DNA of 64,000 nt from Candidatus Aenigmatarchaeota archaeon. Lineage in GTDB: Archaea; Aenigmatarchaeota; Aenigmatarchaeia; PWEA01; JACQIF01. Location of the stretch: the NCBI GenBank assembly GCA_016432325.1, contig CP066684.1, positions 32,001 to 96,000 on the forward strand. The letters are read 5' to 3'. The notes under the pieces were generated by a model. The model was not told the DNA's origin. It was given only the letters and a program-made list of their open reading frames with translations, and did not search any database. A program made the translations under genes and the position numbers. This document shows positions 35,888 through 36,281 of this stretch, one piece after another. Within the stretch, counting starts at the first letter, position 1. The number at the start of each line of letters is the position of its first letter.

Positions 35888-36225
35888 GCGTGCGTGACAT
35901 AGGAATCGACGTGACGAAACCGGCCGGTACGTGCAGCGACGCGAAGTGCCCGTTCCACGGAACTCTGCCCGTGCGCGGTCGAGTCTTCAAAGGCGAAGTG
36001 ATAAGCAGCCTCGCTGCGAAATCCGCCACAGTGCGCTGGGAGTTCGCCCAGTTCGTCACGAAATACGAGCGCTATGCGCGCAGAAACACCAAGGTCGTGG
36101 CTTACAGTCCTTCATGCATAGGCGCCAAGAAGGGCGACATCGTACGAGTCGCGGAGTGCAGGCCTCTGAGCAAGACGAAGCGTTTCGTAGTCATCGAAAA
36201 AGTAACTGCAGGTGAGAAAAAATGA
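35884..36225 (+). CDS. rps17: 30S ribosomal protein uS17
   Basis: KCPFHG.L.VRGR, KYERY, ECRPLSKTK. Confidence 0.97.
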   Translation: MSVRDIGIDVTKPAGTCSDAKCPFHGTLPVRGRVFKGEVISSLAAKSATVRWEFAQFVTKYERYARRNTKVVAYSPSCIGAKKGDIVRVAECRPLSKTKRFVVIEKVTAGEKK

Positions 36226-36281
36226 AATGTCAACGCCATTTCAGATTTACCTCACACAAGACACAGGAGGTTCGGTAAAAA
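36222..36281 (+). promoter_or_regulatory. two-hairpin leader plus 18-codon uORF (MKCQRHFRFTSHKTQEVR) before rpl14
   Basis: TGAAATG-tcaacgc-CATTTCA then ACCTC..GAGGT-TCGGT; uORF has its own AGGTG SD and ATGA overlap with rps17 stop. Confidence 0.6.

Follow-up and report, generated by a model that had tools for sequence, protein, structure and literature searches.

Three genes with a common start region

Why do three unrelated genes, rpl14, aIF1 and proS, carry the same two-hairpin arrangement directly before their start codons? All three lie in the stretch of 64,000 nucleotides analysed here (hereafter the window), whose initial annotation took the arrangement for a separate leader subtype in a translation-coupling or anti-SD switch family. 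The description itself was sound: the coordinates and motifs of the shared layout were confirmed, as were the sequence GAGGTTCGGT, common to rpl14 and proS just before the start, the ATGA overlaps at rps17 and rpl29, and the mini-ORFs of 18 and 15 codons. The interpretation has to be revised in several respects.

The genome that holds the window (G000) is a single contig of 874,869 bp with 55.9% G+C. According to Pfam, the genes upstream of the aIF1 region are rps19, rpl22, rps3 and then rpl29 (ending at 35037), followed by SUI1/aIF1, Rpp29, a 61-aa ORF, rps17 (35884-36225) and rpl14 (36282-36680). The 61-aa ORF (35702-35887, forward strand), between Rpp29 and rps17, overlaps the start of rps17 as ATGA; it had no Pfam match and received a gene call in independent assemblies too. 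Elsewhere in the window, the identities of ProRS, ferredoxin and L19e were confirmed for the genes downstream of related copies. The 16S rRNA terminates in the usual CCTCC, so that GAGGT is the Shine-Dalgarno (SD) sequence.

The spacer between rps17 and rpl14 is 56 nt long, with the sequence previously given, and holds the following features together with its borders:

36211..36216, forward strand: old SD GGTGAG, inside the 3' end of rps17; its counterpart serves rpl14 directly in relatives
36217..36225, forward strand: first copy of the direct repeat AAAAAATGA, at the old junction, where the rps17 stop TGA overlaps an ATG
36223-36225, forward strand: rps17 stop TGA, overlapping ATG 36222-36224
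36222..36278, forward strand: mini-ORF of 18 codons plus TAA (MKCQRHFRFTSHKTQEVR), ending 3 nt before the rpl14 ATG
36223..36243, forward strand: hairpin 1, TGAAATG (36223-36229) and CATTTCA (36237-36243), with a 7-nt loop
36246..36279, forward strand: hairpin 2 module, TTTACC (36246-51) being able to pair with GGTAAA (36274-79)
36250-55 and 36266-71, forward strand: anti-SD CCTCAC and new SD GGAGGT, inside the hairpin 2 module
36249-36253 and 36267-36271, forward strand: ACCTC and GAGGT of the rpl14 copy
36277..36285, forward strand: second copy of AAAAAATGA, holding the working rpl14 start, ATG 36282

The corresponding elements at aIF1 are:

35034..35081, forward strand: aIF1 copy, a mini-ORF of 15 codons plus TGA, whose ATG overlaps the rpl29 stop (ATGA)
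35035-35037, forward strand: rpl29 stop TGA, within this ATGA
35034-35040 and 35044-35050, forward strand: hairpin 1, ATGAAAC and GTTTCAT
35051-35059, forward strand: anti-SD ACCTCCTCG
35075-35081, forward strand: new SD GAGGTGA, with GAGGT at 35075-35079
35088..35090, forward strand: probable aIF1 start ATA, 8 nt after GAGGT

Those at proS are:

52971..53017, reverse strand: proS copy, from the old ATG (53017) to the proS ATG (52973-52971)
53016-53010 and 53004-52998, reverse strand: hairpin 1, TGAAATC and GATTTCA
52992-52986 and 52985-52981, reverse strand: GCCTCAC and the new SD GAGGT
53043..53050, reverse strand: TATA-like box TTTAATAT, 25 nt 5' of the old proS ATG

Given the spacing of this TATA-like box, the proS transcript probably starts at or near the old ATG.

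The three copies belong to a genome-wide family

The complete two-hairpin pattern has exactly three matches in the 875 kb of the genome, all in the window, and none in any of 20 simulated genomes (first-order Markov). All three matches finish 7-10 nt upstream of a start codon, in the case of aIF1 once its start is corrected as discussed below. The hairpin half of the pattern alone gives 90 strand-matches, against a mean of 2.8 in the simulated genomes. One might suppose that these are chance hairpins beside ordinary SD sequences, GAGGT being simply an SD and CCTC being short. This idea is refuted by both counts, as well as by the covariance-model matches described below, and we consider its probability negligible.

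Additional copies are present in the window:

14676..14727, reverse strand: ferredoxin copy, with the core TGAAACTGCTGTTTCA at 14715-14700 and an outer stem ATGGAC/GTCCAT
40160..40217, forward strand: rpl19e copy, with the core at 40172-40187, an outer stem ATGAAC/GTTCAT, the new SD GGTGA and ATG 40215
1569..1628, reverse strand: further copy, with an 8-nt direct repeat AACTACTT on both sides; in the sister genome the insert is absent and AACTACTT occurs once

The ferredoxin and rpl19e leaders have the core TGAAAC-N4-GTTTCA in common, and hairpin 1 matches this inner stem, as had been proposed. The relatedness of the five leaders listed in the initial annotation is therefore upheld, while their number understates a family whose hairpin 1 occurs at about 50 places in the genome. 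A loose search (TGAAA-N3-15-TTTCA) returned 62 places, and at 52 of these the stem comprises at least 6 bp. Among these 52 hairpins, 42 are situated in the non-coding 13.6% of the genome, as delimited by a crude gene caller, and 31 no more than 75 nt upstream of a gene start, a position shared by 32% of random non-coding sites. TGAAAC-N4-GTTTCA is also the commonest 6-N4-6 palindrome genome-wide, with 21 sites against 7 for the next one.

We built a covariance model (R1) from ten aligned copies, nine from this genome, at loci not in the window, and one from the sister genome (G001), which belongs to the same genus and whose L14 protein is 91% identical. The R1 consensus consists of hairpin 1 and a second hairpin, whose inner part is the CCTC..GAGG pair. 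Its base stem TTTAC/GTAAA covaries (CTTAC/GTAAG, TCTAC/GTAGA, GTTAC/GTAAC) and extends to the first base of the start codon. The three sites are the top matches of R1 in the window: rpl14 with 40.6 bits (E 1.4e-6), proS with 31.1 bits (1.3e-4) and aIF1 with 22.9 bits (6.5e-3), followed by 1569-1628, ferredoxin and rpl19e. At the scale of the genome, the E values become 1.9e-5, 1.8e-3 and 0.09, the last one being borderline, among 27 matches at E<=0.1. The sites at rpl14, proS and aIF1 are thus members of the genome-wide TGAAAY hairpin family, within a subfamily with a TTTAC..GTAAA right arm, and do not form a leader subtype of their own. GAGGTTCGGT is nothing other than the conserved right arm of this subfamily (GAGG..C.GGTAAATG). 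A scan of the whole window against Rfam 15 at gathering thresholds gave no match.

Among 40 relatives, R1 (E<=0.01) matched only in families f1 (six matches, in G001) and f4 (six each in G017 and G019, two in G009 and one in G011); there was no match in nine genomes of family f5 or in 19 genomes of other orders. The sequence of the core stem is conserved across f1 and f4, with loops that vary, and a host factor could recognise this stem.

The regularity of the palindrome raises the question of whether it acts as duplex DNA, as an operator for a dimeric transcription factor placed just downstream of the transcription start. A 16-bp palindrome with half-sites 10 bp apart in 21 copies, and a core located about 10-30 nt after the predicted transcript start in transcript-leading genes, would suit such a role. 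However, the spacing of the half-sites ranges from 3 to 11 nt over the family (7 nt at rpl14, 3 nt at aIF1 and 5 nt at proS), and many copies, including those at rpl14, aIF1 and rpl19e, reside inside operons with no promoter nearby. Since the loops stay constant at 3-4 nt when this spacing varies, extra pairs lengthening the stem, a hairpin formed by a single strand explains the core better, and we regard an operator as very improbable.

Hairpins with the same core also occur in or beside rRNA and tRNA genes. TGAAAC hairpins are found 150 nt upstream of the 16S gene (flanks at genome positions 636942 and 643695); another one lies inside the 16S gene of G019 (L126) and one in the T-arm region of a tRNA of G004 (L136). 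The 16S gene of the host genome (637095-639272) measures 2178 nt against a model of 1478 positions, and introns or inserts in it are therefore probable. The TGAAAC core is not shared by a second abundant palindrome family, TCGAAC/ACGAAC-N4-GTTCGA (7 and 6 perfect copies). We also noticed a hairpin-less leader module, ATGAA-TTTACCGCTCAGA-N8-GAGGGACCAGTAAATG, before about 10 further genes. Outside the window it occurs at genome positions 596623, 853957, 488122, 421944, 653510 and 108665, in tandem at 488122 and broken by other hairpin inserts at 421944 and 653510.

Filled and empty sites point to lineage-specific insertion

Comparison with relatives indicates how the rpl14 spacer arose. A tight rps17/rpl14 junction with no insert, with the SD inside rps17 and a stop codon overlapping or abutting the start, was found in 28 of 29 loci from relatives, the sister genome included; in the remaining one, rps17 is apparently missing upstream of rpl14. 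The junction of the sister genome reads GGTGACAAGAAATGAAACC, the two genes overlapping as ATGA. The host genome retains the old junction, GGTGAGAAAAAATGA, and AAAAAATGA recurs 60 nt further on, at the working rpl14 start. The insert comprises 60 nt and is flanked by a 9-nt direct repeat. G019, from another family, has its own 47-nt insert, different in sequence, at the same junction. The sequence is identical in two independent run assemblies and a third contig displays the same gene spacing; it is not an assembly artefact. Every allele recovered by an exact-protein look-up was filled and identical, all of them originating from three runs of a single study, and an exact scan of metagenome contigs with the 24-nt left flank gave no match. 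On the opposite strand, the inverted SD and ATG create a 45-aa ORF (36239-36102) across the 3' end of rps17, which has no Pfam match and which we took as spurious. An intron of the bulge-helix-bulge type was also rejected here: the two exon ends that would border the rpl14 insert (AAAATGA / GACCCG) lack complementarity, and the predicted folds contain no such motif.

The other two sites are likewise empty in the sister genome. Its rpl29/aIF1 spacer is devoid of a hairpin; in the host, the repeat flanking the aIF1 insert, GAGGTG, is ambiguous. The proS gene of the sister genome is leaderless and has no element, with a TATA box, 21 nt and then ATGTCCGAACAG, whereas in the host the TATA-like box is followed by 25 nt, the old ATG, a 44-nt cassette and then ATGTCAGAACAG, the flanking repeat being ATG alone. 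The three sites being empty in so close a relative, their elements represent lineage-specific insertions of about 44-60 nt. Similar filled/empty pairs exist elsewhere. At genome position 297996, a gene that was leaderless has acquired 46 nt, an SD among them, between copies of ATGAAGTGC (9-nt repeat); other pairs with flanking repeats are located at 33597 (8 nt), 122281 (a duplicated SD-ATG block of 27 nt) and 326981. A census of all short-range 9-mer direct repeats was too noisy for use.

Read towards the gene, the usual layout of a copy starts with ATG and a few of the first codons of the gene (D1), continues with the hairpin and a stretch complementary to D1, and then with 8-20 nt containing an SD, before the real start repeats the same codons (D2). 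D1-to-D2 periods cluster at 52-60 nt. At rpl14 and aIF1, an SD-like GGTG/GAGG motif is present just upstream of D1, and the right arm of the cassette carries the new SD (GAGGT...CGGTAAA). The CCTC described as an anti-SD is explained by this layout, its source being an inverted partial copy of the old start region (D1).

Occupancy is sporadic. Only two comparable loci, uS4 and HerA, carry an element in both the host and the sister genome; at uS4 the stem shows a compensatory G-C to A-T change, and the direct repeats are identical within each species and different between them. The eL39 junction is filled in the host, G017 and G019, that is 3 of 20 genomes of the order, and empty in the sister genome, in three congeners of G017/G019 and in all members of families f5, f2 and f3. 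Such sporadic and recurrent occupancy fits hot spots rather than a conserved regulon.

Taken together, we consider it somewhat more probable than its rivals combined that the three 'leaders' represent copies of a dispersed insertion cassette, about 45-60 nt in length, which is restricted to this lineage and inserted after the split from the sister species. The observations behind this reading are family membership, filled and empty sites in sister genomes and flanking direct repeats, together with mini-ORF geometry, the ability to form hairpins and a bias towards translation genes. We infer the mobility of the cassette from presence and absence of copies. Domains of Y1_Tnp (PF01797), TnpB (PF07282) and reverse transcriptase (PF00078) were all missing from the host genome in a search of these three families, in which control genomes were positive. 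This absence speaks against a cassette, and so do its flanking repeats, which range from 3 to 27 nt and are unlike a target-site duplication of fixed length.

This variability, and the outer stems, which are locus-specific, bring to mind a process that requires no mobile element. Local fold-back or template-switch errors at gene starts could produce direct-inverted-direct rearrangements, the likeness between copies reflecting only the shared look of start regions (GGAGG..ATGAAA). Template switching at quasipalindromes is a known mutational route (PMC7202029). Outer stems formed with a copy's own flanks reach -6.2 kcal/mol, against -4.7 with the flanks of other copies, and none of 10000 permutations attained the observed mean. 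Moreover, G011, G017 and G019 have independent, unrelated inserts at rpl29/aIF1, and those of G011 and G017 can use aIF1's own codons as a hairpin arm. Errors of this kind do not account for an identical 16-mer, TGAAACTGCGGTTTCA, at 8 loci (either strand counted), nor for a right arm, TTTAC..CTCAG..GAGG..CCAGTAAATG, conserved at unrelated genes. As a model made from other copies finds the three sites, copying between loci or one shared source is needed, and we regard purely local errors as improbable. Within the insertion scenario, template-switch correction of imperfect palindromes may nevertheless be the way in which the locus-specific outer stems grow.

Mini-ORFs, folding and translational coupling

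Across the family, a mini-ORF that opens at the old ATG and spans the hairpin was found in 19 of 31 start-associated copies, its stop falling in an interval from 14 nt upstream to 4 nt downstream of the first base of the main start (binomial p about 6e-7, for an assumed rate of 0.2). These stops are TGA inside GGTGA, or are part of TAAATG, TAGATG or ATGA. At rpl14, rps17 leads into the mini-ORF through an ATGA overlap and the mini-ORF is separated from rpl14 by 3 nt; the gap to aIF1 is 6 nt, with the stop inside the aIF1 SD. The mini-ORF of proS is an exception to this geometry, with 52 codons and an out-of-frame entry into proS. Archaea are known to couple translation by termination-reinitiation at ATGA-type overlaps (Huber et al. 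2019, PMC6728339), and the arrangement at rpl14 and aIF1 has the geometry expected of it, which makes translational coupling plausible there. The suggestion of a translation-coupling family is thus borne out insofar as the copies form a start-codon family with mini-ORF geometry; it fails where it implies a conserved leader, given the empty sites in the sister genome and the sporadic occupancy.

We propose the following sequence of events. The cassette would have landed on an ATG or on an ATGA stop/start overlap before rpl14, aIF1 and proS. Each copy keeps the old ATG and adds a hairpin, a partly inverted old start region, a new SD and a re-created start; thanks to this fresh SD and start, the gene remains functional. 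A mini-ORF opened by the old ATG would run through both hairpins and stop in or just after the new SD. Ribosomes arriving from rps17 or rpl29 would unfold the structure and might then initiate again at the real start, and on the formerly leaderless proS mRNA ribosomes loading on the 5'-terminal AUG would do the same. Both translation of the mini-ORF and coupling are steps that we infer. With the new ribosome-binding site and the mini reading frame that it supplies, the cassette is probably insertion DNA that is tolerated, rather than a regulatory switch of old standing.

An anti-SD switch, as initially proposed, finds no echo in the predicted folds. At rpl14 and aIF1, CCTC is predicted to pair with the old upstream SD, lengthening hairpin 1, and not with the new SD, which at aIF1 is paired with TCGCTTC; at proS, the CCTC..AGG pair is embedded in a larger stem. 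When the copies are compared, folding is slightly better for the antisense than for the sense strand (G-U pairs 25 versus 43, p 0.04), so that there is no sign of selection on an mRNA fold. Three other functions were considered and rejected: a functional peptide, as the mini-ORF peptides are unrelated; a terminator, as no T-run follows the hairpins; and an internal promoter, as no TATA-like box occurs at a consistent distance and the rpl14 and aIF1 elements are inside an operon.

Target genes and the case for regulation

The copies cluster at translation genes. Of 25 start-associated copies in the host genome, eight precede ribosomal proteins (eS24, uS4, uS15, uL1, uS12, uL14, eL19 and eL39), an enrichment with p about 2e-4 when ribosomal-protein genes are assumed to make up 7% of the background. 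Three precede aminoacyl-tRNA synthetase (aaRS) genes, and other targets are aIF1, an RNase PH subunit of the exosome, RNase P Rpp14, a TtuA-like tRNA thiolase and a Sec61-beta-like gene; about 15 of the 25 downstream genes serve in translation or RNA processing. The sister genome has copies at uS10, aIF5A, Rpo7 and Top6B, and those of relatives in general include uS10, eL15, eL39, aIF1 and aIF5A.

This bias would also be expected of a regulon, and it counts against the cassette reading, as do the core stem conserved across two families, the compensatory stem change at uS4 and the deviating mini-ORF of proS. The elements could accordingly be selected cis-regulatory leaders, in which a host RNA-binding factor binds the UGAAAC/GUUUCA stem and co-ordinates the mRNAs of ribosomal proteins, aaRS and factors, the anti-SD and the mini-ORF serving as a switch. 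The choice of targets in the host and its relatives, the stem conserved with variable loops across f1 and f4, and the covarying pairs of hairpin 2, which include the first base of the start codon, all agree with this proposal. We nonetheless judge it unlikely. Occupancy is not conserved, with uS4 and HerA alone filled in both sister species and the eL39 junction in few genomes of the order; rRNA and tRNA genes also have same-core hairpins within or next to them; the sense strand folds no better than the antisense strand; and the covariation of hairpin 2 could stem from the making of an inverted copy rather than from selection.

Two more far-reaching scenarios, which we put forward tentatively and with less conviction than tolerated insertion, would combine these elements. 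Either one DPANN order possesses a hairpin-guided DNA insertion system that targets and regenerates the starts of its most highly expressed genes, providing each with a new SD and start and a relay mini-ORF, or the cassettes have been domesticated as modules that tag the mRNAs of the translation apparatus for common control by a stem-binding factor, an archaeal counterpart of ribosomal-protein leader control.

Comparison with known repeats and leaders

The literature that we searched contains no description of such elements in Aenigmarchaeota or other archaea. REP/BIME, MITE, Correia and ERIC sequences are similar in being short non-coding repeats that form hairpins, exist in tens of copies, are mostly intergenic and co-transcribed with their neighbours, and differ in presence between close relatives. 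Unlike them, the cassettes are placed on start codons and not after genes, are bounded by variable-length repeats of the duplicated start region, contain an SD together with an in-frame mini-ORF, and derive their outer stem from the target's own sequence. Unlike REP and MITE families with their cognate transposases, they are accompanied by no RAYT/Y1 or TnpB gene in the host genome. MITEs are further characterized by terminal inverted repeats and a duplication of fixed length, whereas the cassette palindrome is internal, at the hairpin tip, and the repeats span 3-27 nt.

Rickettsia palindromic elements (RPE), mentioned in two reports (PMC1458961, PMC1166351), are selfish palindromic repeats of a reduced genome. 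Like RPEs, the cassettes survive inside or next to essential genes because the product is not destroyed. However, RPEs measure about 100-150 bp and are read in frame within a protein, whereas the cassette does not become part of the protein: it restores a start, and a separate mini-ORF spans it.

At the old rps17/rpl14 and rpl29 junctions, the genes overlap as ATGA, an arrangement of the kind involved in ATGA/TGATG termination-reinitiation (PMC6728339), and the mini-ORF opens at that very ATG; instead of coupling the genes directly, the cassette would relay ribosomes through an inserted ORF of 15-18 codons. Bacterial SD-sequestering hairpins and leader-peptide attenuators similarly combine an anti-SD 5' of the SD with a short ORF able to alter the fold. 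In the cassettes, however, the anti-SD is predicted to pair with the old SD (rpl14, aIF1), the peptide is not conserved and the element is not conserved at orthologues. Presence at orthologous genes across relatives also distinguishes the autoregulatory leaders of ribosomal proteins from the cassettes. The family thus sets itself apart by landing on start codons, duplicating the start region, carrying an SD and a relay mini-ORF, and preferring translation genes.

If the sites are indeed insertions, a minimal genome would tolerate selfish or error-born inserts right on the starts of essential genes (ribosomal proteins, aaRS, aIF1), each insert carrying the parts for restarting translation. Genes without a leader, proS among them, would thereby become SD-led and acquire a 5' hairpin and a mini-ORF, which would provide a concrete route between the two archaeal modes of initiation. 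Repeated insertion at the same junctions in different genera suggests a targeting principle linked to high expression. In annotation, the cassettes give rise to false upstream starts, to small ORFs that are spurious and to 'conserved leaders' that are so in appearance only.

Start codons of aIF1 and rpl19e

The aIF1 copy led us to re-examine the start of the gene. An in-frame TGA at 35079 lies two codons 5' of ATA 35088; the zinc knuckle CPNCGLP precedes the first ATG (35145), and there is no ATG, GTG or TTG 5' of the knuckle. The reading frame most likely begins at ATA 35088 and not at the first ATG. The 15-codon mini-ORF is in frame with aIF1, with TGA 35079-81 as the sole separation, and read-through would fuse both; as the insert is confined to one species, their common frame is probably a coincidence.

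About 21 genomes of the order (families f1-f6) have an apparent non-canonical AUH start of aIF1/SUI1 (a conserved ATC, ATA or ATT), with an in-frame stop 0-2 codons before and GAGGTGA 6-8 nt before this position, and the gene often has no ATG, GTG or TTG ahead of the zinc knuckle. Other orders of the class have ATG at the same position (CTG in two genomes). Bacterial infC starts at AUU. The archaeal factor discriminates against non-canonical starts (PMC6237735), and eIF1 is reported to have a poor start context (Ivanov et al. 2010, cited in PMC6237735). An AUH start of aIF1 would parallel both the AUU start of infC and the eIF1 context, and by this analogy its order-wide occurrence suggests autoregulation of start-codon fidelity in archaea.

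At rpl19e, a small zinc-ribbon ORF (CPICG...CxxC; window positions 39900-40160) directly precedes the gene in both the host and the sister genome, and the rpl19e of the latter has an apparent TTG start.
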